Shown here piece by piece: positions 40,128 through 56,942 of a stretch of 64,000 nucleotides of DNA. The notes beneath the pieces are model-generated. The model saw only the letters and a program-made list of their open reading frames with translations, was not told the DNA's origin and did not search any database. The stretch's first letter is position 1, and every line of letters begins with the position of its first letter. The DNA comes from Chloroflexota bacterium (GTDB taxonomy: Bacteria; Chloroflexota; Limnocylindria; QHBO01): positions 63,817-127,816 of the forward strand of contig JBBDRZ010000007.1 of assembly GCA_040905185.1 (NCBI GenBank). Reading direction: 5' to 3'. Both the position numbers and the translations under genes were made by a program.

Positions 40128-40814
40128 TCAGGGCTGGATGGGCAGTGCGACCACGATCAGCTCGCCCCAGTTGCGGTTGAAGCCCTGGGAGGTTTGGAGC
40201 GTCAGCCGTTCGTGGTCGGTGGCCGCCGTCCAGCGGCCTCCCTCCTCGCACTCGGGGCCCGCATACAGGAGGTCCAGCGGCGGGCTCGGCATTGGCTCGG
40301 CGTCCGGGTCGGGGCAGGACACGTTGGGGTGGACCTCGGTCACGCGGTAGCGGAGGACCTGGCCGTCGGACATCAGGACCCGCACCTCGGCGCCGAGCTG
40401 GACGTTCCACAGGCCTATGAACAGCGGCCGCAGGGCGTGCGCCACGATGTACGAATTCGTTCCGCGGCCCGGGTCCGAGGTCTGCGAGAGCAGAAATGCG
40501 CAGCAGTCGCCGAGCGGCTGGCCTGGCGCAAGCCGCTGGATGGCGACATTGACGCCTACTGACTCGATCTGGATCTGGGTCGCCACCCAGTCGCTGGGGA
40601 TCGGCGTGGCCTCGGGCGTGGCCACGGGCGTGCCATCCGTCGAGGGAGCGGCCGCGGGCGTCTGGGTCCCACCCACCAGGCTCGGGTTCGGGATAGGCGC
40701 CAGGCTGGGCGGCGCGCCCTCGTCCAGCGGCAGCTGGCCGGCAAGAATCAGGACCACCCCCAGCAGGGCCAGGGTCAGCGGAAGGGCCAGACCTCGGGCC
40801 CGGCGACCGTTCAA
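40128..40814 (-). CDS. Sortase-fold protein with Ser in place of the catalytic Cys
   Basis: N-terminal TM and P/T-rich linker, PGRGTNSYIVAH, YRVTEV, LTLQTS (canonical TLxTC); TTGA overlap with the nuoN stop. Confidence 0.78.
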   Translation of the reverse strand: MNGRRARGLALPLTLALLGVVLILAGQLPLDEGAPPSLAPIPNPSLVGGTQTPAAAPSTDGTPVATPEATPIPSDWVATQIQIESVGVNVAIQRLAPGQPLGDCCAFLLSQTSDPGRGTNSYIVAHALRPLFIGLWNVQLGAEVRVLMSDGQVLRYRVTEVHPNVSCPDPDAEPMPSPPLDLLYAGPECEEGGRWTAATDHERLTLQTSQGFNRNWGELIVVALPIQP

Positions 40815-42269: not shown

Positions 42270-43796
42270 TCACCATGGCCAGGCGACCAGATTGAGCCCC
42301 GCGGCGCTCTGAACCGCCTCCAGGATGCGCTGCACCGGCCCGGCGGTGGCCTCCAGGACGGGGGCCGGGAACACGCCCAGGGCCACGACCAGGACCACCA
42401 GCGGCGCCAGCGACAGCCATTCGACGCGGGTCAGGTCACGCAGCCCGCCCCAGGCCCGGCGCATCCAGTCCGACGGCACCGCGAAGAACGCGCGCTGGAA
42501 CATCCACAGCATGTAGACCGCGCTGGCGATCACCACCAGCATGGCCCAGGCGGCCACCCAGGGGGAGTACTGGAACGCGCCGAGCAGGACGAGGAACTCG
42601 CCCACGAACCCGGACAGCCCGGGGAGGCCGATGGAGGCGAAGATGAACAGCCCGAACAGGGCGGCATAGGCCGGCATCCGGGCGTTCAGCCCGCCCATGT
42701 GGCTGATCATCCGGTCGTGGGTCCGCTCATAGATGACCCCCACCAGCAGGAACAGGGCCCCGGTCGTGATGCCATGGCTGACCATTTGGAAGACGGCCCC
42801 CTGCAACCCCTGGGCATTGAACACGAACGTGCCGAGGATGACGAACCCCATGTGCGACACGCTCGAGTAGGCGATCAGCTTCTTCATGTCGGGCTGCACC
42901 ATCGCCACCAGCGCGCCGTAGACGATGGCCACCAGGGCCAGGCCGATCATGAGTGGCGCGAAGGAGTGGGCCGCATCGGGCAGCAGCGGCAGTGAAAACC
43001 TCAGGAACCCGTAGCCGCCCAGCTTGAGCAGTACCCCGGCCAGGATGATGGAGCCCGCGGTCGGGGCCTCGACGTGAGCATCGGGCAGCCAGGTGTGGAA
43101 CGGCCACATCGGCACCTTGATGGCGAACGCCAGCCCGAACGCGATGAACGCGCCAGCCTGGAGCAGGTCGGGAAACGGGGCGCCGCGGAGGGCTTCGTAG
43201 CTGAACGTGAACGTTCCGCCCGGGAGGTTGGCGTTGGCGATGACCACGGCCAGGATGGCGACCAGCATGAGGAGCGAGCCGACCAGGGTGTAGATGACGA
43301 ACTTCAGCGTGGCGTAGATGCGCTGTGGTCCGCCCCAGATCCCGATCACCAGGTACATCGGGATCAGGCTCAGCTCCCAGAAGACGTAGAACACGAACAG
43401 GTCGAGCGCCACAAAGACGCCGAGCATGCCGGCCATCAGCAAGAGCATCGCGGCGTAGTACTCCTTGACCCGCATCTGGATCGGTCCCCACGAGTACAGG
43501 ATGCTCACCACGCTCAGGACCGTGGTGAGCAGCACCAGCACGGCGCTCATGCCGTCCACCCCCAGCTGGTAGCGGATCCCGAACGCGCTGATCCACGGAA
43601 GGTCCTCGCGGAATTGGAACTCCGCCCCGGCCGGGTCGTACCCCAGCAGGAACAGGCTGAAGCCCAGGCTCACGAGCGCCGCAAGCAGGGCCACCCAGCG
43701 GATGAGCCGATGGTTGGCGCCCGGCACGAACAGCAGGGCCGCCACGCCGAGAAGCGGCGTGAAGACGATCAGCGACAGGACCGGCAGGCCGCTCAT
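42270..43796 (-). CDS. nuoM: NADH-quinone oxidoreductase subunit M
   Basis: FYVFWE, KVPMWPFHTWLPDAHVEAP, KKLIAYSSVSH. Confidence 0.97.
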   Translation of the reverse strand: MSGLPVLSLIVFTPLLGVAALLFVPGANHRLIRWVALLAALVSLGFSLFLLGYDPAGAEFQFREDLPWISAFGIRYQLGVDGMSAVLVLLTTVLSVVSILYSWGPIQMRVKEYYAAMLLLMAGMLGVFVALDLFVFYVFWELSLIPMYLVIGIWGGPQRIYATLKFVIYTLVGSLLMLVAILAVVIANANLPGGTFTFSYEALRGAPFPDLLQAGAFIAFGLAFAIKVPMWPFHTWLPDAHVEAPTAGSIILAGVLLKLGGYGFLRFSLPLLPDAAHSFAPLMIGLALVAIVYGALVAMVQPDMKKLIAYSSVSHMGFVILGTFVFNAQGLQGAVFQMVSHGITTGALFLLVGVIYERTHDRMISHMGGLNARMPAYAALFGLFIFASIGLPGLSGFVGEFLVLLGAFQYSPWVAAWAMLVVIASAVYMLWMFQRAFFAVPSDWMRRAWGGLRDLTRVEWLSLAPLVVLVVALGVFPAPVLEATAGPVQRILEAVQSAAGLNLVAWPW

Positions 43797-43797
43797 G

Positions 43798-46035
43798 TCA
43801 GCGCACCACCGTGGCGTAGACCAGCAGCACGATGACCAACCCGGCCGCGATACCCAACCCGTAGTTCTGGACCCGACCGGTCTGGGACCGGCGCAACCCG
43901 CCGCCCAAGCGCTGGGCCAACCAGCCGACGCCGTTCACCGCCCCATCGATGACCTTCACGTCGAACCACCACAGGGCGTTGGAGAGCACCACGCCTCCGC
44001 GGGCGAAGACGAGCTGGTACAGGTCGTCGAAGTAGTACTTGTTCAGGCTGGCCCGATACATCCCAGGTCCCAGCCCGAACGGGATGCGCTGCACGAAGCG
44101 CGCCGGCGCCTCGGGATCCTGGATGTACCAGCGCCGGGCGAGCAGGATCCCGGCCAGCCCGACCGAAGCTCCGGCGAGCAGCAGCAGGCCGCCCAGGCCG
44201 AACAGCTCGAAGCCGTGCGCCTCCCCATGTTCCAGGGCGCCGGCCAGGATCGAGCCGGGCTGGATGCCGGCCCCCAGCTCCTCCGCGCCACGGAACACCT
44301 CCTCGAGCCACTGGTGAATGGCGCCGCCCTCGGGCGGAATGCCCAGCAGCAGCCCGGCCAGCACGGTGGGCACGGCCACGATGACGAGCGGCGCCACCAT
44401 GGTCGGTGCGCTCTCGTGGACGTGGTGCCACGCCGCCGCCGGCCCGCGCCACGCGCCGTGGAAGGTCATGAAGATCATCCGGAAGGCGTAGAACGCGGTC
44501 AGGAACGCGACCCCGATGCCCACCGCCCAGTAGATCGGATAGCCGCGGGCGAATGCCTCCGACAGGATCTCGTCTTTGCTGAAGAACCCCGCGAAGATCG
44601 GGATCCCGGCCAGGGCCAGGGCCCCCACCACCATGGTCCCGTAGGTCCAGCGCATCCGTTCCCGGAGGCCGCCCATGAACCGCATGTCCTGCTCCCCGCC
44701 GGCGCCGTGGATGACCGATCCCGAGGCCATGAACAGCAGCCCCTTGAAAAAGCCGTGGGTCAGCAGGTGGAAGATGGCCGCCACCCAGGCGCCGATGCCC
44801 AGGGCGAAAAACATGTAGCCCAGCTGGCTGACGGTGGAGTAGGCCATCACCTTCTTGACGTCGTTCTGGGTCAGCGCAATGGCCGCCGCCAGGACGGCGG
44901 TGAACACGCCGATGGCGGCGACGACACCCATTGCCTCCGGGGAGTGGGCAAAGATCGGGTTGGCGCGGGCGACCAGGTACACCCCGGCGTTGACCATGGT
45001 CGCGGCGTGGATGAGGGCGCTGACCGGGGTGGGGCCTTCCATGGCGTCGGGCAGCCAGACGTGGAGCGGGAACTGGGCGCTCTTGCCCACCGCACCCGCG
45101 AACAGGAGCAGGGCGATGAGGGTGATATGCCAGCCCTCCAGGCCGCCGATCCCGGCGAACACGTCGTCGAAGGTCAGCGTACCGAGCAGGGTCCAGATCA
45201 GGATCACGCCCAGCCCAAAGCCGAAGTCGCCGACCCGGTTGACGATGAACGCCTTCTTGGCCGCTCCCGCCGCCGACGGCTTCTTGTACCAGTAGCCGAT
45301 CAGGAGGTACGAGCACAGCCCGACTGCCTCCCAGCCGACGTACAGGAGCAGGAAGTTGTCGGCCAGGATCAGCAACAGCATGCTGAACATGAACAGGTTC
45401 AGGTAGGCGAAGAAGCGCCACACGCTGCGGTCGCCGTCCATGTAGCCGATGGAATAGACGTGGATCAGCAGGCCGACCGTGCCGACCACCAGCAGCAGGA
45501 CCGCGGTCAGCGCGTCCACGAAGAACGTGATCTCGATCCGGAAATCGCCCGACACGATCCAGTCGTAGACGGTGACCCGGTACTCGGCGCCTCCGAAGAT
45601 GACCGAGCCGAAGATCGCCATCGACGCCGCCCAGGCCACGGCCACCAGTGCGACCGGGACCCACCACGAGCGGTAGACCGGCCGCGGCCCGCCGGGCCTC
45701 ACGTGACCGGGCTGCCCGCGCCCGTCGTTCAGCTCGTCGGGGATGATCCCATCGGCCCCGTTGGCGTTGGCCAGGTCGTCGGCGTGGCCCCGGTGGGGCG
45801 AGGTCTCGCGCTGCTCCTCCTCGGTCGGGACGCCGCGGTACCCGGACTCGTCGACCGCCTCGGCGTGGGAGGCGTGCGCGTCGCCGCCCGTGTCGTGACC
45901 CGCCCCGGCGCCGTGCTCCTCATCGTGCTCGGCGTGCTCCGGAATGCGGTCGAGGCGCGGCCCAAGCAGCACCGCGAACAGGAAGCCGGCCAGCGGCAGG
46001 GCCGGGATCAGGGCGACGAGCGACTGCAGGTCCAG
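43798..46035 (-). CDS. nuoL: NADH-quinone oxidoreductase subunit L (probable CTG start; His/acid-rich insert)
   Basis: KSAQFPLHVWLPDAMEGPTPVSALIHAATMV. TM1 (LIPALPLAGF) lies upstream of the first GTG and is reached only from CTG 46035, which has AAGGAG 7 nt upstream. Confidence 0.95.
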   Translation of the reverse strand: MDLQSLVALIPALPLAGFLFAVLLGPRLDRIPEHAEHDEEHGAGAGHDTGGDAHASHAEAVDESGYRGVPTEEEQRETSPHRGHADDLANANGADGIIPDELNDGRGQPGHVRPGGPRPVYRSWWVPVALVAVAWAASMAIFGSVIFGGAEYRVTVYDWIVSGDFRIEITFFVDALTAVLLLVVGTVGLLIHVYSIGYMDGDRSVWRFFAYLNLFMFSMLLLILADNFLLLYVGWEAVGLCSYLLIGYWYKKPSAAGAAKKAFIVNRVGDFGFGLGVILIWTLLGTLTFDDVFAGIGGLEGWHITLIALLLFAGAVGKSAQFPLHVWLPDAMEGPTPVSALIHAATMVNAGVYLVARANPIFAHSPEAMGVVAAIGVFTAVLAAAIALTQNDVKKVMAYSTVSQLGYMFFALGIGAWVAAIFHLLTHGFFKGLLFMASGSVIHGAGGEQDMRFMGGLRERMRWTYGTMVVGALALAGIPIFAGFFSKDEILSEAFARGYPIYWAVGIGVAFLTAFYAFRMIFMTFHGAWRGPAAAWHHVHESAPTMVAPLVIVAVPTVLAGLLLGIPPEGGAIHQWLEEVFRGAEELGAGIQPGSILAGALEHGEAHGFELFGLGGLLLLAGASVGLAGILLARRWYIQDPEAPARFVQRIPFGLGPGMYRASLNKYYFDDLYQLVFARGGVVLSNALWWFDVKVIDGAVNGVGWLAQRLGGGLRRSQTGRVQNYGLGIAAGLVIVLLVYATVVR

Positions 46036-46039
46036 CGCG

Positions 46040-46348
46040 CTACTCCTTCAGATCGGCGTAGTCGTCGACCTCGGCGGTCTGACGCGTGCGGATGATCGCG
46101 ATGACCAGGGCCAGGCCCACCGTCGCCTCCGCTGCCGCGACGGCCATGACGAGCAGCGCGAAGACGGCGCCGGCGTTATCGGTGGCGTAGTAATCGAACG
46201 CGTTGAACGCCACCAGGGCCAGGTTGACGGCGTTCAGCATGAGCTCGATGCAGATCAGCATCATGATCGCGTTGCGTCGGGCCAGGAAACCGAAGGCCCC
46301 GATCCCGAACAGGGCGAGTGACAGGAACAGGTAGCCGTTGAGGCCCAT
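46040..46348 (-). CDS. nuoK: NADH-quinone oxidoreductase subunit K
   Basis: RRNAIMMLICIELMLNAVN, AAAEATVGLA. Confidence 0.97.
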   Translation of the reverse strand: MGLNGYLFLSLALFGIGAFGFLARRNAIMMLICIELMLNAVNLALVAFNAFDYYATDNAGAVFALLVMAVAAAEATVGLALVIAIIRTRQTAEVDDYADLKE

Positions 46349-46351
46349 CGG

Positions 46352-46861
46352 TCAGTTCATCCGCTCGTCTTCTTCGGGCCGCCGGGCCAGGTAGATGGCG
46401 CCGATGATGGCGGCCAGCAACAGGAAGCCCACGATCTCGAACGGCAGCGCGTAGTCGTTGAAGATGGCGGCGGCCAGGGCGTCGAGCTCAACCGGGATGA
46501 TCACGCTGGGGTTGGGCCAGTCGGTCTGGAGCAGGGCCCATCCGACGAGGGCCACGATCCCGATGGCGACCAGGGCTGCGAAGGGCGCCTGCCGCTGGAA
46601 GGGTGCCGGCAGGTTGGCGTCACCGGCCTGGGTCAGCATGATCGCGAACAGGATCAGGACGCTGATGGCGCCCAGGTAGATGAGGACCTGGGCAGCGGCC
46701 ACGATGGGCGCGCCGAGCAGGGCGTAGGTGCCGGCCAGGGCTCCGAAGGAGACCATCATGGCCACCGCGGAATGGATCACGTTCCGCAGCAGGACGGCCG
46801 CCAGGCCGCCGCCCAGGACGCCGGCGGCGAGCACCACGAAGAGGACGGTCGAGATGTCCAG
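46352..46861 (-). CDS. nuoJ: NADH-quinone oxidoreductase subunit J (probable CTG start)
   Basis: AQVLIYLGAISVLILFAIML, YALPFE; GGGAG SD 8 nt before CTG 46861, with an in-frame stop 11 codons further upstream. Confidence 0.93.
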   Translation of the reverse strand: MDISTVLFVVLAAGVLGGGLAAVLLRNVIHSAVAMMVSFGALAGTYALLGAPIVAAAQVLIYLGAISVLILFAIMLTQAGDANLPAPFQRQAPFAALVAIGIVALVGWALLQTDWPNPSVIIPVELDALAAAIFNDYALPFEIVGFLLLAAIIGAIYLARRPEEDERMN

Positions 46862-46925: not shown

Positions 46926-47771
46926 CTACGGCAAGAGCTGATCTCCCTCGCGCCCGGCGGTCACCTGCAGGCCGTTGGCGGTGGACGCGGCCAGAGTGGC
47001 GGCGTCCATGGCCAGGACGTCCATCTGGTCGTCGGTTCGTGCCGGATCGTGGTGGAACAGGACCAGCTTGCCGACCTGGGCGCGGCGCGCGAAGGCGATG
47101 GCCTCGGCGACCGATGAGTGGCCCCAGCCCAGCCGCTCGGCACGCTCTTCGTTTGTGTATTGAGCGTCGTGGATGAGCACGTCCGCCCCGCGCGCCAGGC
47201 GCAGCCCGCTCACCCAGGATGTGTCGCCATCTCCGTCACTCGTCCCCAGAGCCGGCTCGTGGTCGCTCAGGTAAGCCAGCGACTGGCCGTTCCCGGTGAT
47301 GCGGTAGCCGAGCGTCGCCCCCGGATGGATCACCTCGTCAGCCCGGATCGTGAACGGACCGATCCGGAACGGCTCCTCGGGGGCGTCATGGAAATCGAAG
47401 TTGGCGCGCAGGTCGCGCAGCCGAATCGGGAACAGCGGCGGGGAGAGGTAGCGGGTCAGGCGCGCCCGCAGGTGTAGGGTCGGCGAGGGCGGGCCCCAGA
47501 TGTGGATCTCGCACCCGCGCCGGAAGATGGGCGCAAAGAAGCCCAGCCCCTGGATGTGGTCCATGTGGAGGTGGGTGAGGAGGATGTCGATCCGCCCCGC
47601 CTCCATCGCGACCTCGGCGCCCAGACGCTGGATGCCGGTCCCCGCGTCGAGGACAAGCAGCGTCCCATCGTCGCCGCGCACCTCCACGCAGGCCGTGTTG
47701 CCGCCATAGCGCGCAGTCTGGGGGCCGGCGGCGGCCACCGACCCGCGGGTGCCCCACAGGCGGACGATCAC
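46926..47771 (-). CDS. MBL-fold metallohydrolase (phosphodiesterase/RNase Z-like)
   Basis: WGTRGS, YGGNTAC, DAGTG, THLHMDHIQG, DAQY, WGHS, FHHDP. Confidence 0.9.
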   Translation of the reverse strand: MIVRLWGTRGSVAAAGPQTARYGGNTACVEVRGDDGTLLVLDAGTGIQRLGAEVAMEAGRIDILLTHLHMDHIQGLGFFAPIFRRGCEIHIWGPPSPTLHLRARLTRYLSPPLFPIRLRDLRANFDFHDAPEEPFRIGPFTIRADEVIHPGATLGYRITGNGQSLAYLSDHEPALGTSDGDGDTSWVSGLRLARGADVLIHDAQYTNEERAERLGWGHSSVAEAIAFARRAQVGKLVLFHHDPARTDDQMDVLAMDAATLAASTANGLQVTAGREGDQLLP

Positions 47772-48172
47772 GCCTCGGGGGACTCCCAGAACATCGTCAC
47801 CGAGCCCATCACGTCGCCGTGCCCGCCGGTCAGCGGGAAGGCGGTGACGCCGATCCGGCGCGCGACGCCGTCGCCGCCCGTGATCTCGATCGTGGCGTGA
47901 GCCGGACGGCCCTGGCGCAGGGCGATGATCGGAGGCAGCTCTTCCCTGGGCAGCGGGTTTCCGGACTCGTCCCGGGGGCGGAAGGACGTGGTCCAGGTCT
48001 CGAACGGCATCTGGTCCACGTCGTCGGCCCGCACGCCGAGGGTGGGCTCGGCCGCCTCGTTGAAAAAGACGAGATCCCCCTCGCCGTCGATGACCCACAT
48101 CGGGATGGACAGGTGCTCCGAAAGCTGGCGGAGGAGGATCATCTCGATCGGCTGCTGGGGGAGATCGGTCAT
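47768..48172 (-). CDS. Stand-alone PAS-domain protein
   Basis: MWVIDGEGDLVFFNEAAEPTLG PAS N-motif; GTGA-coupled to the MBL hydrolase; TATCCT 7 nt before the ATG. Confidence 0.85.
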   Translation of the reverse strand: MTDLPQQPIEMILLRQLSEHLSIPMWVIDGEGDLVFFNEAAEPTLGVRADDVDQMPFETWTTSFRPRDESGNPLPREELPPIIALRQGRPAHATIEITGGDGVARRIGVTAFPLTGGHGDVMGSVTMFWESPEA

Positions 48173-48226
48173 CCGGGCGAGGATACCCGCTGACGTCCTC
48201 CGACACCGTCGCCCCGGATCACTCAG

Positions 48227-48355: not shown

Positions 48356-48489
48356 AAAACGGCGCCAGAGCGCCCGTCAGCAGCGAAATGCGACACCCGG
48401 GGGCACCGATCGGCACGGCAGGAGCTTCATCCTGGCTGATAGGTGTCACGGGCAAGCACACGGCGTCGGCGCAGCGGGAAGGCGCCGGT

Positions 48490-50886
48490 TTAGCGGGTGG
48501 GGCGCTCCCGGTCGGACATCTCCAGGATGTCGAGCATGGGCAGGTCGCGCTGGTACTCGCTGAACTCGAACTCCGGGCCGCAGCGCAGCGCGTCGTAGGG
48601 ACAGGCGTCGGCGCAGATGCCACAGAAGATGCAGCGGCTCACGTCGAGCTGGTAGGTCTCCAGGATGCGCGGCCGCGGCATGAGCGCGCCGACCGGGCAC
48701 GTCTCCGCGCAGCGCCCGCATGACACGCACGGGGTCTCGTTCAGCGAGACGTAATCGGCGGTCGTAACCAGCGAGTCGAAGCCCTTGCCGATGAAGTCGT
48801 AGCACCCGGCGCCCACGATGTCCTTGCACACCTGGGCGCATCGGCCGCAATCGATGCAGCGCGAGTAGTCGCGCAGGATGAACGAGTGGGTCTCGTCCCG
48901 GCCGTAGCCGTGGTTGATGCCGACATACGGGTTGTCCTGGATCGACCGCTCGTCGATCGTCATGTTCAGGGTGGTCTCGTACTCGATGGCCGCCTCGCGC
49001 AGGTCGCAATGGCCGATCGCTTCGCACGTGCACTGGAGGCAGCGGGCGGCCTCGCCCATGGCCTGGTCGTGGGTATAGCCGTGCTCGTACTCCTCGAAGT
49101 TCGTGCGCCGCTCCTGAGCGCCCAGCTTGCCCATCACCGCCTGGGGCTCCTTCACGTCGTCGGTAAAGGGCACGATGGTCAGGAACGACGGCTGCGGCTC
49201 GGACACGACGCGCCGCACCTGCGGGTCGTCCAGGTCGTGGCCGCGGAGCCAGTAGTCCATGGCATACGACGCCCGCCGCCCGTCGCCGATAGCCTCGACC
49301 ACGGTTGTCGCCCCCAGGTTCACGTCGCCGGCGGCAAAGATCTTGGGGATCCCGGTGCGGAACGTGTTCGCATCGGCCACCAGGCGCCCCTGGCGGCTGA
49401 CCTCCAGCCCGGAGCGGATCTCGTCCGGCTCGGAGTCGATCCATGACAGCTCCGGTCCCTGGCCGATCGCCCCCAGCACGGTGTCACACTCGACAATGAA
49501 CTCGGTGCCGGGCATGGGCTCCGGTCGGCGGCGCCCCTTCTCATCGGGCTCGCCCAGGTGCATCTTCTGGAATTCGACCCCGGTCACCTTGCCTTTGGCA
49601 TTGGTCACGACGCGGACCGGAGCGGCCTGGAAGATGACGGTCGCGCCCTCTTCGATGGCCTCGTGGACCTCGTCCTGGGAGGGCATGTCCTTCAGGTCGC
49701 GGCGGTAGACGATGGTCACCGCCTTCGCCCCCTGGCGGAGGGATGTCCGGGTGCAGTCGATAGCCGTGAACCCGCCGCCGATGACCACCACTCGGGCCCC
49801 CTTCAGGGCGGGGACCGGGACGCCCCGCGTGCTGTTGTACAGGTTCTCCAGCGCGTTCACGGTGCCGTCCGCGAACTCCTCGGGAATCCCCATCTCGTTG
49901 GGCTTGTAGCAGCCGATGCCCACGAAGATGGCGTCATAGCCCTGCTCGACCAGATCGGCCAGGTGGAAGTCGCGGCCCAGGCGCATGTTCGGCTTGAAGG
50001 TGGCGCCCAGCTCCCAGACGTGGTTCAGCTCGCGGTCCATCCAGCCCTTGGGCAGGCGGTACTCGGGGATCCCGTAGCGGAGCATGCCGCCCTGCTCCGG
50101 ATCGGCCTCGAACACGTCGCAGTGATGCCCGCGCAGCTGGAGGTAGTAGGCCACCGTCATGCCGGCCGGTCCTGAACCCACGATCGCCACCCGGCGCCCG
50201 GTGTCCGATTCCTTGGGCCACGGCAGGGGGGCCGGCGCATCCACCTCCAGCACCCGGTCGGCGCAGTACCGATGCGAGTCGCGGATCGCAATGGCGGTGT
50301 CCACTTCCTCGCGCCGGCAGTGGGTCTCGCACGGGGCGGGGCACACCCGACCTAGGATGGCGGGGAAGGGGAGCGAGCGCTTCAGGATGCGGGTCGCCTC
50401 TTCCCAGTTGCCCTCCGCGTTGGCCTTCAGGTAGCCGGGGATGTCGACCCGGGTGGGGCACTTGAACTGGCAGGGCGGCAGGCAGTACGCGTCGTGGTCC
50501 GAGAAGATCAGCTCCAGCACCAGGCGGCGGTTCTCGATGACCCGCTCCGAGTGGGTGGTGATGACCATCCCCTCGGTGATCTGGGTGCCGCACGAGATGG
50601 GCGTGTTGTCCTGGCCCTCGACCTCGACCACGCAGATGCGGCAGGCACCGTAGGGCGACAGCTTGGGCTCGTAGCACAGGGTCGGGATCTCGAGCCCCAG
50701 CACCCGGCAGGCCTGGAGGATGGTCTGGCCCTCTTCGGCCTGGACCTGGCGGCCGTTGATCGTGACCGTGATCTTGCGCGTGCCGGGCACCACCGGCCAG
50801 ATGGGCGCGTAGTCCTCCAGGCGCCCCAGGGTGGCGCCATCGTCCTTGCCGTTGCCCTTCCCATTGCCGTTGCCCACGAAGGTCAT
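48490..50886 (-). CDS. Fusion of NuoG-like N-terminal Fe-S domains, a GltD-like FAD/NADPH domain, a 2x[4Fe-4S] ferredoxin and the C-terminal half of NuoI
   Basis: [2Fe-2S] motif IPTLC..GACRIC..SC; HDAYC; PPCQFKCP and GRVCPAPCE; GSGPAG; GGGFTAIDC; YRR; CLQCTC..HCDL; CIDCGRCAQVC; CVSCGRCAETCP; then YQLDVSRCIFCGICADACPYDAL..GPEFEFSEYQR. Confidence 0.9.
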   Translation of the reverse strand: MTFVGNGNGKGNGKDDGATLGRLEDYAPIWPVVPGTRKITVTINGRQVQAEEGQTILQACRVLGLEIPTLCYEPKLSPYGACRICVVEVEGQDNTPISCGTQITEGMVITTHSERVIENRRLVLELIFSDHDAYCLPPCQFKCPTRVDIPGYLKANAEGNWEEATRILKRSLPFPAILGRVCPAPCETHCRREEVDTAIAIRDSHRYCADRVLEVDAPAPLPWPKESDTGRRVAIVGSGPAGMTVAYYLQLRGHHCDVFEADPEQGGMLRYGIPEYRLPKGWMDRELNHVWELGATFKPNMRLGRDFHLADLVEQGYDAIFVGIGCYKPNEMGIPEEFADGTVNALENLYNSTRGVPVPALKGARVVVIGGGFTAIDCTRTSLRQGAKAVTIVYRRDLKDMPSQDEVHEAIEEGATVIFQAAPVRVVTNAKGKVTGVEFQKMHLGEPDEKGRRRPEPMPGTEFIVECDTVLGAIGQGPELSWIDSEPDEIRSGLEVSRQGRLVADANTFRTGIPKIFAAGDVNLGATTVVEAIGDGRRASYAMDYWLRGHDLDDPQVRRVVSEPQPSFLTIVPFTDDVKEPQAVMGKLGAQERRTNFEEYEHGYTHDQAMGEAARCLQCTCEAIGHCDLREAAIEYETTLNMTIDERSIQDNPYVGINHGYGRDETHSFILRDYSRCIDCGRCAQVCKDIVGAGCYDFIGKGFDSLVTTADYVSLNETPCVSCGRCAETCPVGALMPRPRILETYQLDVSRCIFCGICADACPYDALRCGPEFEFSEYQRDLPMLDILEMSDRERPTR

Positions 50887-50896
50887 CGGTCCAATC

Positions 50897-52243
50897 CTAT
50901 GACGCCAGCGGCGCGAGCAGCGGGGAGACCGGGTCCGTCTTGCACGAGCCGGCCAGGCAGACGCCCCGCTCGGCGTGGGCGCGGTACTCGTCCGCGAAGC
51001 GATCCAGGGTGGTCAGCATGGGGCGTGGGGCAAGAGACTCGAGGCGGCACAGGGCGGTGTCGGCGATCTTGGCCGACAGCTCACGGAGCAGGACCAGGTC
51101 GTTGGGACGCGGCGTGGCGGCCAGGATGCGGTCCAGGGCCTCCACCAGGCGCAACGGACCGATCCGGCACGGGACAGCCTTTCCGCACGCTTCGCGCGCG
51201 GAGTAGTCCAGCAGAAAGCGGGCCGTGGCCACCATGCAGGTGGCGGCGTCGGTGACCAGGACCGATCCCGAACCGATGTGGGCGCCGGCGGCGCCCAGCG
51301 CGCCATATTCGTAGCCCGTGGCGGACAGCTCGTCGGCTGCCAGGGCGCCGGCACCCGGTCCACCCACGAACGCGGCCTTCACGGTCCCGGTCGAACCGCC
51401 AGCCAGCTTGACGATGTCCGCCACCGGGGTGCCCATGGCCACCTCGGCCAGGCCCGGGTTACGCACCGCGCCGGCGATCGTGACCAGCTTGGTGCCCGGC
51501 GCCTCCTCGGGCCCGACCTTCGCGAAGTCGGCTGCCGAGTGACCCAGGATCCACGCCACGTGAGCCAGGGTCTCGCCGTTGTGGACGAGGGTCGGGACGC
51601 CCCACAGCCCGCGCTCGGCGGGGTACGGGGGGCGGATGAGCGGCATGCCGCGGTCGCCCTGGAGGGCGTGGATGAGAGCCGTCTCCTCCCCCGCCACGTA
51701 GGCGCCGGAGCCTTCCCATACCGACACCTGGACCGATACGTCGGTGCCCAGGATGAGGTAGCCCGCCAGGTGCGCGGCCTCGGCGTCGGCCACTGCCTTG
51801 CGGAGACGTTCGATGGCGGCGGTCCAGTCGCGGCGCACGGCCAGGATGGCCTCGGAGGCGCCCACCGCGGCGGCCGCGATGATGAGGCCCTCGAGGACGA
51901 GATGCGGGTTGCCCTCGGCCAGCGCCCGGTCACCCAGCGAGGTCGGGTCGGCGCCCATCAGGTTCGCGACCGCGATCTTCCGCTCGTCGGGCGCGGAACG
52001 AGTGGCGCGCCACTTGTCGGCAACCGGGAACCCGGCGCCCCCTCGGCCGCGGAGGCGGGACGCGAAGATCTCGGTGATGACCTCGTCGGGGGAGAGCTTG
52101 GTGATGGCGCGGGTCAGGCCGCGGTAGCCCCGGGCCTTGCGGTACGCATCCAGCGATTCGGCGTCCAGCTTCCCGATCCCGGCCAGCAGGCGCTGCTCCC
52201 CGCCGGGGAGGATCCGGATCTGCGGAGAGAGGCCGGCCGCCAT
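50897..52243 (-). CDS. nuoF: NuoF-like subunit with degenerate motifs
   Basis: LRGRGGAGFP, GAYVAGEETAL, PPYP and NGET retained; NADEG(E/D)P replaced by NLMGADP; CGKAVPC lacks one N3 Cys. Confidence 0.85.
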   Translation of the reverse strand: MAAGLSPQIRILPGGEQRLLAGIGKLDAESLDAYRKARGYRGLTRAITKLSPDEVITEIFASRLRGRGGAGFPVADKWRATRSAPDERKIAVANLMGADPTSLGDRALAEGNPHLVLEGLIIAAAAVGASEAILAVRRDWTAAIERLRKAVADAEAAHLAGYLILGTDVSVQVSVWEGSGAYVAGEETALIHALQGDRGMPLIRPPYPAERGLWGVPTLVHNGETLAHVAWILGHSAADFAKVGPEEAPGTKLVTIAGAVRNPGLAEVAMGTPVADIVKLAGGSTGTVKAAFVGGPGAGALAADELSATGYEYGALGAAGAHIGSGSVLVTDAATCMVATARFLLDYSAREACGKAVPCRIGPLRLVEALDRILAATPRPNDLVLLRELSAKIADTALCRLESLAPRPMLTTLDRFADEYRAHAERGVCLAGSCKTDPVSPLLAPLAS

Positions 52244-53070
52244 CAGGCCCCCGCCCGTGCCTTCTCGGCCCGACGGGCGTAGATCAGGTGGCGTGCCTCG
52301 TCCACGTTGAGCGGCCCGTAGACCAGGGTGTCGATCCGCACCGCCGGCGCAATCGCGCCCGCTCCCACGCTCGCATCGGTCTCGAGCGTGAACGCGCCGT
52401 CATCGGTCGTCTCGCCGGCTCGAACGCCCAGCTCCTCCTCCAACGCCGCCAGCAGCTTGTCGCCCCCCGCGAAGCGGCACGCGGCGCAGTCACACACCGT
52501 CACGAGATGCCCTTCGGTGGGCAGCAGCCGGAAGCCTCCCAGCCCGGCGGCCCCGAAGACCTGGGCCCAGTGGATCGTCATCCGGTCGCTGATCCGGCGC
52601 AACGCCGGTTCCGGCAGGTAACCGTATCGGGTCTGGACCGCGACGAAGATGGCCACCAGCGACTCGGGCCGACCACCGAACCCGTCGATGACCTGGTCCA
52701 CCCAGGGGGTGTCCACCGCTTCCTCCCAGCGCGCCGCGTTGCGCATCGGTCTGGACGGAAGGCCGGCCCGCCGGAAGGCGTTCGGATCGCGGCGCTCGTC
52801 GTAGATCTCGGGCAGCCCGTATCGGATCTTGTTGCCCTGCGAGTCGAAGCCGCTCATGTCAATTGCTTCCACCGGGCACACCATGGCGCACTGGAAGCAA
52901 ACCTCGCACTTGTGCTCCCCGAACGGGTCGTAGATGAGGTCCAGCCGCCCCCGCCAGCGCTCGGCCATGGCCGGGCGCACCTCGGGGTACTGCTGGGTCA
53001 CCTTGGGGCGGAAGAGGTTGCGCAGGGTGACGCCCATGCCGGTGAGCAGGCCGGAGCCGGGGATCGCCAT
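52243..53070 (-). CDS. Fusion of the N-terminal half of NuoI and a degenerate NuoE-like domain
   Basis: GMGVTLRNLF..VTQQYPE..RWRGR..KCEVCFQCAMVCP (only one ferredoxin motif), then VQTRYGYLP..VCDCAAC..DDGAFTLE..SVGAGAIAP. Confidence 0.9.
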   Translation of the reverse strand: MAIPGSGLLTGMGVTLRNLFRPKVTQQYPEVRPAMAERWRGRLDLIYDPFGEHKCEVCFQCAMVCPVEAIDMSGFDSQGNKIRYGLPEIYDERRDPNAFRRAGLPSRPMRNAARWEEAVDTPWVDQVIDGFGGRPESLVAIFVAVQTRYGYLPEPALRRISDRMTIHWAQVFGAAGLGGFRLLPTEGHLVTVCDCAACRFAGGDKLLAALEEELGVRAGETTDDGAFTLETDASVGAGAIAPAVRIDTLVYGPLNVDEARHLIYARRAEKARAGA

Positions 53071-53081
53071 GTGTCAGGCCA

Positions 53082-54101
53082 TCACAGCTTGAAAATCAGG
53101 ACCACCGCGGCGGTCACGAACAGGTTGATGAGCGCCAGCGGCAGGAGCGCTTTCCAGGCCATCCCCATCAGCTGGTCCACGCGCACGCGGGGCAGGGTGG
53201 CCCGCACCCAGATCGCGATGAACACGAAGATGTACGTCTTCAAGAAGAACCAGACCAGGCCGTATACGGTGCCGGCGAAGCCGTCCAGCTGGGCCGGGAA
53301 GGGCCATGGCGCCAGCCACCCGCCGAAGAAGAGGGTGACCAGGATGCCGCACATGATGAAAAGTGCGACGTACTCCGCAAAATAGAAGAAGCCGAATCGC
53401 ATCCCCGAGTACTCGGTAAACGGCCCGGCCACGATCTCTGAATCGGCCTCCACCATGTCGAACGGGGTGCGGTTGATCTCGGCGGCGGCGGCGATGAAGA
53501 AGATCGGGAAGCCGACCAGCTGCCAGATGACCGCCCAGCCGTGCTCCAGCTGCCATTCGACGATGTGGGTGAAGGACAACGTCCCGGTCAGGACCACCAC
53601 GCCCACGATGGACAGGGTCAACGGGATCTCGTAGCTGACCATCTGGGCCGCGCTCCGCAACCCGCCCAGCAGTGCGTACTTGTTGTAGCTGGCCCACCCC
53701 GCGACCAGCATCCCGACCACCGACAGACCGATGATGGCGAAGAAGAAGATGACGCCGATGTCGGAGTCGAAGGCCACCAGCCCCGGCGCGAATGGGATGA
53801 CCAGCATGCTCATGGCGGCCGCCATGAACACCATCCACGGAGCCAGGGTGAAGACCGGCACGTCGGCTCGATCCGGCGTCTGGTCCTCCTTGGCCAGGAT
53901 CTTGAAGCCGTGGATCGCGCTCTGGAACATCCCGCGCGGGCCCACCCGGTTGGGGCCGTAGCGGAGCTGCATGAGGGCGATGATCTTGAGCTCCAGCTGG
54001 CCCACGATAAACGCGGTCGGCACGGTCAGCAGCAGGAGCAGGGTGGTGGCCGCCACGAAACGGCCGACGCCGAGCAGGGTTTCGACGAATGCCGGATCCA
54101 T
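53082..54101 (-). CDS. nuoH: NADH-quinone oxidoreductase subunit H
   Basis: RYGPNRVGPRG, KYALLGGLRSAAQMVSYE, EINRTPFD..EA..E, EYSG, RATLPR. Confidence 0.97.
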   Translation of the reverse strand: MDPAFVETLLGVGRFVAATTLLLLLTVPTAFIVGQLELKIIALMQLRYGPNRVGPRGMFQSAIHGFKILAKEDQTPDRADVPVFTLAPWMVFMAAAMSMLVIPFAPGLVAFDSDIGVIFFFAIIGLSVVGMLVAGWASYNKYALLGGLRSAAQMVSYEIPLTLSIVGVVVLTGTLSFTHIVEWQLEHGWAVIWQLVGFPIFFIAAAAEINRTPFDMVEADSEIVAGPFTEYSGMRFGFFYFAEYVALFIMCGILVTLFFGGWLAPWPFPAQLDGFAGTVYGLVWFFLKTYIFVFIAIWVRATLPRVRVDQLMGMAWKALLPLALINLFVTAAVVLIFKL

Positions 54102-54110
54102 ATGGGCGCT

Positions 54111-55391
54111 CTACTTGTCCACGCCGCCCATGATCGGATCCAGGCTGGCCATGATCGCCATGGTGTCGGCGATGAGATGCCCGGGCATGAGCTTGGGCAT
54201 GACCTGGAGGCTGATGAAGCTCGGATCGCGCATCCGGAACCGATACGGGTTGGGGCCGCCGTCACTGATGGCGTACACGCTGTACAGCCCGCGGGGCGAC
54301 TCGATGGCCGCATAGGCCCGTCCCGGGCGAGGGCGGATGATCCCGGGCACCTGGGCCTGCACCGGGCCGTGGGGCATCTTGTCCACGATCTGGTCGATCA
54401 GGTGGATGGACTGCTTCAGCTCCGCGATGCGCTGCATGTAGCGGGCGTAGGTGTCCCCCTCGGTGTGGGTGATGACGTCGAACTCCAGCTCGTTGTAGAT
54501 GCAGTACGGGTGCGCCTTGCGGACGTCGAACGGCACGCCGCTGGCCCGCAGGTTGGGGCCGCTGACGCCCAGGTCGATGGCCTGCTTGGCGGTCAGGGTG
54601 CCCATGCCCCGAGTCCGGGCTCGGAAGATCTCGTTCTCGGTCAGGATCTTCTCGTTCATCTCGATCGTGTCCAGCACGTTGGCCCGCCAGCGACCGAGAC
54701 GAGACATGAACTCGTCGTTGGTGTCGAAGTTCACGCCCCCCACCCGGAAGAAGTTGAACAGCATCCGCTGACCCGAGATGGCGGCCAGCATTTCCACCAC
54801 TTCGTCGCGGTTGATGAAGCCGTACAGGATGGGGGTCAGGCCGCCGATGTCGAGCGCCAGGAAGCCCATCATCAGGCCATGGCTGAACACCCGGTTCAGC
54901 TCCACCACCAGGGCCCGGATGTATTCCGCCCGGCGCGGCGCATGGATGCCGTACAGCTTCTCGAACGCGATGGCCGGCGCGTGCTCGTTGTGCATGGCCG
55001 ACATGTAGTCCATGGGGTCCACGTAGGTCAGGACCGTGGTGTAGGTGGCCTCCTCGCACAGCTTCTCGATCCCGCGGTGCAGGTAGCCGAGCACGGGGTC
55101 GATGTCGATGACCACCTCGCCGCGGACCTTGAGCACCAGGCGCATCACGCCGTGGGTGGACGGGTGCTGGGGGCCCATGTTGACGAGCATCTCGCCGTCG
55201 CCGAGGGTGTAGACCTCCTGCTCGCGCTCGGTCTGGGGCGGCCGGTCGGGGGGCGGGACGATGTCGAAGCCGAAGAACTCCTGGCGCGGCGCGGCGGTGG
55301 CCATGGCGTCCAGGGCAATGGGATCCGGGATGCGCGGCTCGTCCGGGTCGGCCGGCGGCTCGGGGGCGGGGCGCGACCTGGTGGTCGTCAC
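54111..55391 (-). CDS. nuoD: NADH-quinone oxidoreductase subunit D
   Basis: NMGPQHPSTHGVMRL, GYLHRGIEK, ESPRG, C-terminal DPIMGGVDK. Confidence 0.97.
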   Translation of the reverse strand: MTTTRSRPAPEPPADPDEPRIPDPIALDAMATAAPRQEFFGFDIVPPPDRPPQTEREQEVYTLGDGEMLVNMGPQHPSTHGVMRLVLKVRGEVVIDIDPVLGYLHRGIEKLCEEATYTTVLTYVDPMDYMSAMHNEHAPAIAFEKLYGIHAPRRAEYIRALVVELNRVFSHGLMMGFLALDIGGLTPILYGFINRDEVVEMLAAISGQRMLFNFFRVGGVNFDTNDEFMSRLGRWRANVLDTIEMNEKILTENEIFRARTRGMGTLTAKQAIDLGVSGPNLRASGVPFDVRKAHPYCIYNELEFDVITHTEGDTYARYMQRIAELKQSIHLIDQIVDKMPHGPVQAQVPGIIRPRPGRAYAAIESPRGLYSVYAISDGGPNPYRFRMRDPSFISLQVMPKLMPGHLIADTMAIMASLDPIMGGVDK

Positions 55392-55966
55392 ACCGGGCCT
55401 CCGGGCTCGTCGCGGTGCGCGGCCGCGTCATCAAGCTTGCCCAGGTCCCACGTTTCGGGCCGCTCCAGCGGGCGGTTGCCTGCGGCCGCGGAGTCGGCGG
55501 CGTCATCGGGGAGCAGGAAGTCCTTGCGCTGCGGGAAGGACCGGTAGTCGGGCGACATGTAGATCCGCCGCAGGTCGCGGTTGCCCTCGAAGACGATGCC
55601 CATCATGTCGTACATCTCGCGCTCGTGAAACATCGCCCCCTCCCACAGGGAGGTGATGGTGGGCGTCACGGGGTTCTCGCGGTCGACCTTGACCCGGACC
55701 CGCAGCCAGGTCGGGTGGCGGTCCGAGTACAGGTGGTAGACGACCTCGAACCAGTTGCCGACGCCGTAGTCGACCGCGGCCGCATCGGCCAGGAAGAAGA
55801 AGCCGAAGTCAGCGTCGTCGCGCAGGGTGCGGAGCGACTCGACGATCTTGTCGCGGGGAACCTGGATCTCGACCGTGTCCTCGTCGGTCCACAGGTCGCT
55901 CGCCGCGTCGGCGAGGCGTTCGCTCAGCAGCCGGACCAGCGGGCCCGCCGCGGCCGGTGCGCTCAG
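55388..55966 (-). CDS. nuoC: NADH-quinone oxidoreductase subunit C (probable CTG start)
   Basis: [32 protein letters not shown]; CTGA overlaps the nuoB stop, with GAAGGAG 7 nt upstream. Confidence 0.93.
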
Positions 55967-56592
55967 CGCACGTCTCCTTCCCAGGATCGGAGGTCCGGTC
56001 CCCGGTCGGCATACGTGCCCCACTGGCCGCGGCGCTGCTTGACCAGCTCCTGGAGCTTCATCATCCCGTAGATCAGCCCCTCGGGCCGCGGCGGGCAACC
56101 CGGCACGTAGACGTCCACCGGCATGACTCGATCCACGCCCTGGACAACGCTGTAGGAACGCTTGAAACGGCCTCCGGAGGTCGTGCAGGTGCCCATCGCT
56201 ACGCACCATTTCGGCTCCGGCATCTGCTGCCACAGGCGCACCAACGGCCCGGCCATCTTGGTGGTCAGGGTGCCGGCCACGATCAGGACGTCGGCCTGGC
56301 GCGGCGAGGCGCGGAAGGGGAACATCCCGAATCGGTCGATGTCGTTCACGCTGGTGGCGGTGCTCATCATCTCGATGGCGCAGCACGACAGGCCCGACAG
56401 GAGCGGCCACAGGGAGTTGGCCCGGATGAGGTCCAGGATGTAGTCGGCTCGGGTGGGGATGACCTCCAGCAGGCCGTGGAAGCCACCCTGCGGGTGGTTC
56501 TCCATCCCGAACTCGCCCAGCAGTGGGTCGTCGCCGGCGGCGTCGGGGATGACGATCGGCTCGTCAGCGCGGGGAGGGGTCGTTATCGCCAT
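55963..56592 (-). CDS. nuoB: NADH-quinone oxidoreductase subunit B
   Basis: [37 protein letters not shown]. Confidence 0.98.
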
Positions 56593-56942
56593 TTCAGGTC
56601 ACCCTTCTTCCAGGCGTAGAACTCGCCGTACATCAGGACCACCAGGAAGATGCCCATCAGGATCATCCCAGTGAGGGTGAGGTCGCGGATCACGATCGCC
56701 CAGAGGTAGATGAAGATGATCTCGACGTCGAAGGCCACGAAGAGCAGGGCGTACAGGTAGAACGCCAGCCCGAACCGGGACCAGGTGTCACCGATGGTGT
56801 CGATCCCGCACTCGTAGGGCAGCCCCTTCTGGGCCTCTTTGCGCCGATGGGTGATCAGCCACGAGAACAGGATCGTGCCGAACACGAAGGTCGTGGCGGC
56901 CAATCCGAATCCCAGGACGTAGAGCAGCCCGGTCTGGTCCAT
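56583..56942 (-). CDS. nuoA: NADH-quinone oxidoreductase subunit A
   Basis: [21 protein letters not shown]. Confidence 0.97.

Follow-up and report, generated by a model that had tools for sequence, protein, structure and literature searches.

The closest described relatives of the gene studied here are the Bfu enzymes of the NfnABC/StnABC type, for whose solved StnC and NfnA members NADPH is given as the substrate (PMC10482914, PMC11829005, PMC12018979). In Nfn, electrons are described as following the route FAD-A7-A6-A3-A2-A1-B1-FMN, with B1-FMN-C1 as the minimal bifurcating site and B3/B4 reducing ferredoxin (PMC11829005); in Stn, deletion of the StnA cluster abolishes bifurcation, and one arm of the cluster system is treated as a non-functional remnant (PMC10482914). 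An 11-subunit form of complex I occurs in Chloroflexi (PMC3144371), many members of this phylum are reported to encode 13 of 14 subunits, "missing only NuoG" (Spero et al., PMC4453560), and the Thermomicrobium enzyme is listed as nuoA-E,H-N (Islam et al., PMC6776052). Here we describe a gene of a Chloroflexota bacterium (assembly GCA_040905185.1) at positions 48490-50886, minus strand, of a 64,000-nucleotide stretch of contig JBBDRZ010000007.1 (positions 63,817 to 127,816; hereafter the window). It encodes a 798-amino-acid fusion of an NfnA-like protein with the C-terminal half of the complex I subunit NuoI, and lies inside a nuo operon. Judging from the sequence, this fusion is probably the main electron-input subunit of a non-bifurcating, quinone-reducing, proton-pumping complex I that is fed by NADPH via FAD and has an eroding NADH/FMN side entrance.

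Pfam analysis of the fusion protein (P0001) identified Fer2_4 at residues 37-113 (E = 1.5e-21), the GltD/DPD N-terminal cluster domain Fer4_20 at residues 136-214 (E = 2.4e-20), the two-Rossmann flavoprotein body Pyr_redox_2 at residues 232-536 (E = 1.5e-26) and Fer4 domains at residues 670-768. The protein thus begins with a NuoG/HydA-type [2Fe-2S] domain (residues 37-130; 50497..50778, on the minus strand like every operon feature given below). NADH-G_4Fe-4S_3 follows with model positions 1-17 of 40 only (residues 120-136), as the motif is broken after H-x3-C by a GltD/NfnB-like FAD/NADPH domain with two [4Fe-4S] sites (residues 136-620; 49027..50481). A 2x[4Fe-4S] ferredoxin-like domain matched by Fer4_Nqo3, Fer4_7 and Fer4_9 (residues 660-740; 48667..48909) and the C-terminal NuoI half (residues 741-798; 48490..48666) complete the protein. 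The initial annotation had pointed to this break after HDAYC and to the resumption at CLQCTC..HCDL, and every motif that it quoted is present in the translation: HDAYC at residues 131-135, PPCQFKCP at 137-144, GRVCPAPC at 179-186, GSGPAG at 237-242, GGGFTAIDC at 370-378, YRR at 394-396 and CLQCTC..HCDL at 616-629. It was also right that no molybdopterin-type domain occurs (none among the 18 Pfam families matched), although the strand needed to be corrected to minus. Its proposal that a GltD domain replaces the NuoG C-terminus has to be revised, as the GltD domain interrupts the His-cluster motif as an insert that all NfnA/StnC proteins share, while the position of the Fdh/molybdopterin-like domain is occupied by the NuoI half.

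Among solved structures, the fusion protein matched NfnA of C. saccharolyticus (9bov_A, E = 9.4e-169, residues 37-762 against 2-699 of 1178), StnC of S. ovata (8oh5_C, E = 2.6e-146), NfnA of T. sibiricus (9n5u_A, E = 2.6e-139) and NfnB of T. maritima (4ylf_B, E = 1.6e-88). The best solved relatives together span residues 37-763; complex I NuoG chains align with residues ~37-140 only, and the NuoG model scores 100.2 against a cut-off of 470.05, over model positions 1-95 only. NfnB aligns in two pieces of swapped order, with NfnB 8-43 (ending RCLQC) pairing with residues 585-620 and NfnB 46-461 with residues 138-549, which shows a circularly permuted GltD-like domain lodged within H131-x3-C135 ... 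C621-x5-C627. Alignment to StnC and NfnA assigns C71, C82, C85 and C99 to the [2Fe-2S] cluster; H131, C135, C621 and C627 to the His-ligated [4Fe-4S] cluster (the N5/A3 equivalent); C139, C143, C616 and C619 to the distal GltD cluster; C182, C186 and C190 with H205 to the proximal one; and C677/680/683/687 with C720/723/726/730 to the ferredoxin-like cluster pair, which sits in the same domain as in NfnA/StnC. R277 is the equivalent of StnC R239, and the last CxxCxxCxxxCP motif comprises C752, C755, C758 and C762.

The features that characterize the GltD/NfnB family are all present, namely two Rossmann GxGxxG/A motifs (GSGPAG 237-242 and GGGFTA 370-375), YRR..MP, and six Cys together with H205. 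The initial annotation had recognized these motifs as of the NADPH type, and its reading agrees with the four solved enzymes (StnC, both NfnA proteins and T. maritima NfnB), which share the two Rossmann motifs and YRR and in which the second Rossmann motif and YRR..MP are identical to those of the fusion. T. maritima NfnB uses NADPH, and this identity of motifs suggests FAD as the cofactor of the fusion protein and a preference for NADPH. At the cluster nearest the FAD, the non-Cys ligand position, H205 (window ~50272-50274), is an invariant His in all fused proteins checked and may tune the cluster potential for a quinone-directed path.

The remainder of NuoI is encoded upstream. The NuoI model TIGR01971 (121 positions) matches the fusion with positions 71-112 at residues 740-781 (E = 7.4e-15), where NF004536 also matches (residues 718-781), and its positions 1-72 are found at residues 11-83 of a 275-amino-acid open reading frame (ORF) at 52243..53070 (P0002; E = 5.9e-14), a region that also aligns with residues 8-91 of M. 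smegmatis NuoI (8e9g_I, E = 6e-11). This N-terminal half (residues 1-85; 52816..53070) carries the first CxxCxxCxxxCP motif (C55, C58, C61 and C65; Cys invariant in 63 of 63 sequences), and the ORF runs on without a stop codon into a NuoE/NfnC-like domain (residues 117-275, of which 117-264 were matched; 52243..52722). A 448-amino-acid NuoF/NfnB-like flavoprotein core (P0003; 50897..52243) lies between this ORF and the fusion gene. The operon order is nuoA-B-C-D-H-[NuoI-N::NuoE']-[NuoF']-[NfnA'::NuoI-C]-(metallo-beta-lactamase (MBL)-fold gene)-J-K-L-M-N, which reads as the 11-subunit order A-B-C-D-H-I-J-K-L-M-N with a three-gene cassette inside nuoI. All seven membrane subunits (NuoA, H, J, K, L, M and N) were matched, NuoH and NuoL above curated cut-offs, as was the quinone module (NuoB, NuoC and NuoD), with NuoB and NuoD above theirs. 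NuoI as one polypeptide with two CxxCxxCxxxCP motifs was found above the curated cut-off in none of five Limnocylindria genomes searched. An assembly artefact as the source of the fusions was dropped, since they are kept in 63-70 independent assemblies and in several classes.

All three cassette proteins are nearer to Bfu (Nfn/Stn) subunits than to those of complex I. NuoF' scores 377 bits with StnB (8oh5_B, E = 1.4e-111), 375.7 with C. saccharolyticus NfnB and 353.6 with T. sibiricus NfnB, compared with 264 for Aquifex NuoF (E = 2.3e-77) and 260.7 for Thermus Nqo1, while the NuoE' domain scores 90.5 bits with NfnC (9bov_C, E = 1.2e-24) and 54.5 with M. smegmatis NuoE. The canonical models stay below their cut-offs, at 326 against 558.65 for NuoF (TIGR01959) and 61.9 against 142.4 for NuoE. 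The Bfu-like parts are nevertheless eroded. NuoF' covers StnB residues 106-524 of 584 only and lacks equivalents of residues 1-105 and 525-584, and with them the Fe-S domains at both ends of Bfu B subunits. In the N3/B1 motif, CGKAVPC stands where StnB has CGKCIYC, so that the second Cys is lost and three of four Cys are left, and the StnB loop NADEGDPGAF has become NLMGADPTSL, without the acidic residue equivalent to StnB E184. NuoE' reads aSvGaG where NfnC reads aClGcC, leaving two of the four [2Fe-2S] Cys of the C1 site. The RGRGGAGFP FMN loop and the GEET and ET motifs of NuoF' are intact in this genome. From sequence, every cofactor that defines bifurcation in Nfn/Stn thus appears lost or eroded in the cassette, and since the NfnC cluster, the NfnB ferredoxin-binding domain and the N-terminal domain are all absent, the enzyme should be able neither to bifurcate nor to reduce ferredoxin. 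The idea in the initial annotation that a Stn-like trio has been wired into a membrane complex I therefore holds as far as sequence goes, given the Bfu-closest proteins, the complete nuo operon, the order in 80 of 80 related loci and the NuoI fusions; it does not hold in the sense of a working Stn, as the bifurcation cofactors are gone and the NuoE- and NuoF-like parts have decayed in this lineage.

Two further groups of Cys and His residues were observed in the partner proteins. A C-x-C-x2-C triad in the NuoE-like domain (P0002 residues 193-198; window ~52477-52494) is invariant in the three families that retain the thioredoxin-like domain, though the second [2Fe-2S] Cys pair is gone. In NuoF', H423, C429 and C434 (P0003 423-434; window ~50942-50977) align with the StnB His/Cys stretch before the ferredoxin domain and are kept in most lineages though the following domain is absent; they may be what is left of the Bfu zinc hinge.

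Conservation differs between the two flavin sides. All Cys listed above, as well as the absence of the missing ones, are invariant in 63-70 orthologs from independent assemblies. Of the ligand and motif positions checked in the fusion, 37 of 37 are invariant in 8/8 sequences from two further families of the class, and 42 checked residues are invariant or conservatively replaced in 11/11 sequences across several classes; both GxGxxG motifs, YRR 394-396, H205 and R277 are invariant in both of these divergent sets. Measured against eight genomes of the two other families, identity rises from 24-37% for the NuoE' domain and 41-47% for NuoF' to 51-55% for NuoI-N, 50-64% for NuoI-C, 58-60% for the GltD part and 70-74% for the ferredoxin-like domain, the most conserved part. 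The second N3/B1 Cys is absent from 64 of 64 NuoF' sequences of the window's family and present in only two of eight sister-family sequences; three of these eight have a degenerate Gly-rich FMN loop. Seven distant lineages carry a family-specific NAYDADP loop in place of NADEGDP, and in all seven NuoE' has shrunk to an N-terminal helical piece, the thioredoxin-like domain being wholly absent. This pattern of selection suggests that the FAD arm is indispensable and the FMN arm negotiable.

The arrangement is not peculiar to one assembly. A search for related loci gave 139 relatives among 159 matched stretches, nearly all of them titled Limnocylindria or Chloroflexota metagenome-assembled genomes; of these, 80 were kept, in which the genes are colinear in 80/80, and 35 contain all 13 nuo-type genes. 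The same gene order was found in 8/8 loci of two other families. In one related locus (L062, ~8600-9900), the nuoF-like gene is broken across three reading frames, which may be an assembly error or a decaying gene. Among 401 Chloroflexota genomes, the full-length NuoI-N::NuoE' protein was confined to three families of the class (16/16, 23/23 and 4/4 genomes), while a search with the fusion protein (E <= 1e-120) matched 95 of the 401, including a fourth family of the class (2/2) and five families outside it: f9 (5/5), f24, the Ktedonobacteria (27/28), f28 (11/11), f19 (1/2) and f46 (one genome). In four of the 95 (G056, G086, G168 and G212) the match ends at residue 758-765 and the NuoI half is absent, and in six others it breaks off before the C-terminus, in some cases where the contig ends; taking these off, the fusion is present in at least 85 of the 401 genomes. 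The tallies include three genomes marked as unpublished, G344, G145 and G227, none of which has the fusion and on which nothing else here depends. Identical or near-identical proteins occur in Thermogemmatispora aurantia, T. carboxidivorans, Ktedonobacter robiniae, Tengunoibacter tsumagoiensis and Dictyobacter species, where the Ktedonobacteria homologues are annotated merely as "FAD-dependent oxidoreductase" or "hypothetical protein". The design is thus spread phylum-wide across Chloroflexota, including cultured Ktedonobacteria that also keep a canonical complex I.

Operon organization varies with lineage. In the fourth family of the class the genes are divided between two loci, one with A-C-H-J-K-L-M-N and the other with B-D-[I-N::E']-F'-[fusion]; outside the class, four families have B-[I-N::E']-F'-[fusion] and one has A-B-C-D-H-[I-N::E']-F'-[fusion]. 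Each of five outside-class genomes examined also encodes one intact NuoI adjoining a NuoH, and a Thermogemmatispora-type genome has three loci: a canonical A-to-N operon, an A-C-D-H cluster and a B-[..]-F'-[fusion] cluster. The large-genome lineages therefore retain two isoforms and the Limnocylindria the new one only. A phylogeny (FastTree, LG+gamma) of 58 sequences, comprising all 13 NuoI-fused proteins and the best 45 of 112 long representatives, placed the 13 fused sequences in one clade (support 0.996), which points to a single origin of the fusion. In this tree, the fourth-family fusion proteins (loci L124 and L125, genomes G317 and G309) cluster with the Ktedonobacteria-type clade, which could reflect transfer or a deep split within the class. 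Two sister families (L093-L100; P0020, P0055 and others) carry an extra 60-90-residue C-terminal tail on the fusion, rich in His, Gly and Asn, that is absent in the window's family. Beyond fragments from its own family, the best representatives are at most 44% identical to the fusion, and most are 1000-1270 amino acids long and of the ordinary StnC/NfnA type. Ten further representatives (nine of 812-896 amino acids and P0160 of 1140) include a NuoI C-half in P0153 only, which is the basal member of the fused clade; of the rest, six are cut off by the end of the contig shortly after an Fdh-alpha/NuoG-like domain has begun, this domain is present in P0198 and P0160 as well, and P0172 has neither it nor a NuoI C-half.

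The genome (2.18 Mb, 8 contigs, 94.8% complete) was searched for other routes from pyridine nucleotides to quinone. With the 14 operon proteins as tblastn queries, no second NuoA, B, C, D, H, E, F, J or K was found in these 2.18 Mb, and the operon with the fusion gene is the only complex I in the genome. No type II NADH dehydrogenase (NDH-2) was found among the nine strongest PF07992 matches besides the fusion gene itself, out of 13 in the genome: these are MerA-like, lipoamide dehydrogenase, two disulfide-reductase-like, two thioredoxin-reductase-like, one GltD-like and two sulfide:quinone reductase (SQR)/flavocytochrome c-like proteins. The GltD-like paralog (G000:C7:197789-199561, locus L107), ~70 kb from the window, is a 672-amino-acid, PRK12771-like protein that is 32% identical to fusion residues 135-687. 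A PntB transhydrogenase gene (600 bits) lies outside the window at G000:C7:341391-342755.

These observations can be combined in a model in which an NfnABC/StnABC-type gene trio was inserted into nuoI of an A-B-C-D-H-I-J-K-L-M-N operon, such that the NuoI N-half became joined to the NfnC/NuoE-like protein and the C-half to the NfnA-like protein, where it would have replaced the Fdh-like domain. The two NuoI halves would have to pair again into the 2x[4Fe-4S] NuoI fold (N6a and N6b), which would bolt the flavoprotein module onto NuoB/NuoD. Electrons would then pass from NADPH to FAD, to the proximal and distal [4Fe-4S] clusters, to the His-ligated cluster, via the rejoined NuoI to the NuoB cluster N2 and finally to quinone, whose reduction would drive the NuoH/J/K/L/M/N proton pumps. 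In complex I, the His-ligated NuoG cluster passes electrons to NuoI, and the arm that is a remnant in Stn would be the productive arm in the Chloroflexota complex. The His-ligated cluster would form the junction of three arms, one with the GltD domain, FAD and NADPH, one running over the ferredoxin-like and [2Fe-2S] clusters to NuoF' and FMN, and one through the NuoI halves to N2 and quinone. The FMN site of NuoF' may still accept NADH where the N3/B1 motif is complete, while in the window's family one cluster ligand and part of the nucleotide loop are gone. Forward operation is favoured because PntB can interconvert NADH and NADPH and no other route from pyridine nucleotides to quinone is visible. 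We put about even confidence in a broader version, according to which Chloroflexota evolved a second, independent N-module by capturing NfnABC, deleting its ferredoxin branch and fusing it to the split NuoI halves. The product would be a proton-pumping NADPH:quinone oxidoreductase with a three-way Fe-S junction, acting as the sole respiratory entry for pyridine nucleotides in Limnocylindria and as an NADPH-specific or reversible isoform beside the canonical enzyme in Ktedonobacteria.

Several points weigh against an NADPH-fed complex of this kind. Assembly of the complex, and with it the pairing of the two NuoI halves into one fold, NADPH as the physiological donor, the forward direction and proton pumping are all deduced from homology. 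The linker between NuoI-N and the NuoE-like part is ~30-35 residues long, and the co-folding score of the NuoI halves (residues 1-100 with 736-798), 0.21 against a mark of 0.32, counts neither way. For the nucleotide, the role of YRR in 2'-phosphate binding enters as general background. NuoF is retained in every lineage examined, and the N3/B1 motif is complete in seven of seven distant lineages and in the two sister-family sequences mentioned above, so NADH may be an equal or even the main donor in such lineages. Finally, an NADPH-only enzyme would make NADH reoxidation dependent on PntAB at an energy cost, which argues for either a residual oxidation of NADH or an FAD site open to both nucleotides.

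This last consideration bears on the most serious of the alternatives, that the enzyme of this lineage takes NADPH only. The NuoF- and NuoE-like proteins would then be structural relics that hold the NuoI N-half and the NfnA-like subunit, all electrons would enter via FAD, and PntAB would convert NADH to NADPH. We regard this as rather unlikely, though worth keeping in view. It would account for the loss of the second N3/B1 Cys in 64 of 64 family sequences and six of eight sister-family sequences, for the NLMGADPTSL loop, for the degenerate FMN loops of three sister sequences, for the low conservation of NuoF and NuoE, the least conserved subunits, and for the presence of PntB. However, the RGRGGAGFP, GEET and ET motifs are intact in this genome, NuoF was lost at no locus examined, conservation within the fusion is highest for the ferredoxin-like clusters on the way to NuoF, and routing NADH through PntAB costs proton-motive force. 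A three-Cys site can, moreover, still hold a cluster.

The presence of a canonical 14-gene operon alongside the fusion in Ktedonobacteria-type genomes suggests a division of labour, and complex I is reversible. Both would fit an enzyme that runs mainly in reverse, with proton-motive force driving electrons from quinol to NADP+ to supply NADPH for biosynthesis. This would be useful to Chloroflexota that scavenge H2 and CO, and Thermogemmatispora and Thermomicrobium persist on atmospheric H2 and CO (PMC6776052). Such a role is improbable for the present genome, as with a sole complex I and no NDH-2 found, a reverse-only enzyme would leave an apparent respiring heterotroph with no NAD(P)H-to-quinone route, and PntB already offers a supply of NADPH.

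An ordinary NADH-only complex I, with the GltD-like domain as an inert remnant comparable to the cofactor-less molybdopterin domain of canonical NuoG, appears very improbable. Dead domains are known in canonical NuoG and in StnC (PMC10482914), and annotations call these operons type I NADH dehydrogenase (PMC6776052); yet all checked FAD, NADPH and cluster residues are invariant across classes while residues of the NADH side drift, and a remnant would give the opposite pattern of conservation. Hardly credible is a soluble Nfn/Stn-like transhydrogenase that merely happens to be encoded in a nuo operon and does not bind the membrane complex, since, although all three proteins find their closest matches among soluble Bfu enzymes, the first and the last of them are each translationally fused to one NuoI half, no other NuoI occurs in five of five class genomes, the ferredoxin-reducing and bifurcating parts are absent, as is the Fdh-like domain that StnC needs for a stable complex (PMC10482914), and linkage to nuoB persists even where the operon is scattered.

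The other genes of the operon were assigned as follows. Upstream of the cassette lie nuoA (56583..56942; Pfam Oxidored_q4, E = 6.9e-32), nuoB, which carries cluster N2 (55963..56592; TIGR01957, 221.9 bits against a cut-off of 142.7), nuoC (ORF limits as listed, 55388..56410; Complex1_30kDa, E = 4.2e-37, with the domain starting at residue 182 and the ORF overlapping nuoB), nuoD (54111..55391; NF004739, 423.8 bits against 360) and nuoH (53082..54101; NF004741, 323.8 bits against 305), which precedes the E/F/G-like genes as in 11-subunit operons. Downstream lie nuoJ (46352..46837; Oxidored_q3, E = 1.8e-34), nuoK (46040..46348; Oxidored_q2, E = 1.8e-26), nuoL (43798..45972; NF005141, 707.7 bits against 556), nuoM (42270..43796; Proton_antipo_M, E = 4.7e-77) and nuoN (40811..42262; Proton_antipo_M, E = 3.2e-73). 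The listed ORFs of nuoC, nuoD and nuoL begin ~60-180 codons ahead of the homologous region in DNA of 69-70% GC, and translation of these genes probably begins further downstream. The fusion gene and nuoJ are separated by the RNase Z-like MBL-fold hydrolase gene (46926..48206; 426 amino acids as listed; Lactamase_B_2, E = 1.3e-21), which occurs in eight of the 80 related loci (the closest relatives only) and in none of eight loci from two further families; it appears to have entered the operon recently, and its product is probably outside the complex. In a search for expression, only small word shares (0.06-0.15) were found, in six runs of four studies. In one metatranscriptomic library, 27 of the 30 bins of 48400-53200 are covered by short contigs of 90-99% similarity; these come from relatives, DNA carry-over is possible, and they are no evidence of transcription.

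A natural NADPH-linked complex I that pumps protons has long been discussed for NDH-1-type complexes and, to our knowledge, none has been shown; the Chloroflexota enzyme would be one, if our reading is correct. It would also be a second, datable example of complex I gaining an input module, by an unusual route in which a core Fe-S subunit was split and fused to the newcomer. A bifurcating enzyme would have been turned into a non-bifurcating respiratory module, providing a natural experiment for the debate on the Bfu mechanism. Since the fusion is carried by Limnocylindria abundant in soil and freshwater as well as by cultured Ktedonobacteria, the proposal could be tested at the bench now. We found no description of this architecture in the literature, although the supplementary tables of PMC4453560, PMC4758237 and PMC6776052 might hold relevant genes, and the reports of a missing NuoG fit with an unrecognised NfnA-like replacement.

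Compared with NfnABC/StnABC (C. saccharolyticus 9bov, S. ovata 8oh5 and T. sibiricus 9n5u), to which all three cassette proteins are homologous, the fusion shares with NfnA/StnC the permuted GltD insertion in the His-cluster motif, the [2Fe-2S] and ferredoxin-like clusters, the Rossmann motifs, YRR and the non-Cys ligand position at the proximal cluster, where His205 takes the place of Lys in StnC (K170) and NfnA and of Glu in NfnB. Unlike NfnA/StnC, it has no C-terminal Fdh/molybdopterin-like domain, the alignment ending at their residue ~700 of 1172-1178. Unlike Nfn/Stn as a whole, the Chloroflexota module has lost the C-subunit cluster, has both ends of the trio fused to NuoI halves, and occurs in nuo operons of aerobic organisms, not in anaerobes; measured by what a Bfu enzyme needs for bifurcation, it has three of four Cys at B1, two of four at C1 and no B3/B4 ferredoxin domain. 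Like canonical complex I, it has the kinds of fold in which a chain of clusters conducts electrons from flavin to N6a/N6b and N2, but its genes run A-B-C-D-H-[E F G']-J..N and not A-B-C-D-E-F-G-H-I-J..N, an FAD/NADPH domain is added and NuoI is spread over two polypeptides. Bit scores and the tree indicate that the N-module was acquired independently from a Bfu enzyme. The predicted complex would operate as a complex I with an input module resembling a stripped NfnABC, and it lacks defining features of both families, the intact NuoI and canonical NuoEFG of the one and the flavobicluster, ferredoxin domain and Fdh-like domain of the other.

The Mbx-like complexes of Thermotoga and proteobacteria likewise place a GltD-family NAD(P)(H) site at the NuoI position of a complex I-type machine (PMC4758237). 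Compared by description only, they differ in that the flavoprotein is reported to substitute for NuoI in a hydrogenase-related complex that reduces NAD(P)+, that NuoD is hydrogenase-like and that the account consulted describes no NuoE/F/G-type parts (PMC4758237). Of the precedents for a complex I-like machine with a GltD-type site, the Mbx-like operon comes closest as far as that account goes, though its construction is different. Cyanobacterial NDH-1 and archaeal Fpo with FpoF resemble the Chloroflexota system in combining an A-B-C-D-H-I-J-K-L-M-N core with a lineage-specific input module. The NDH-1 and Fpo modules dock as separate proteins, whereas in Chloroflexota a core subunit is split and each of its halves is covalently linked to the module.

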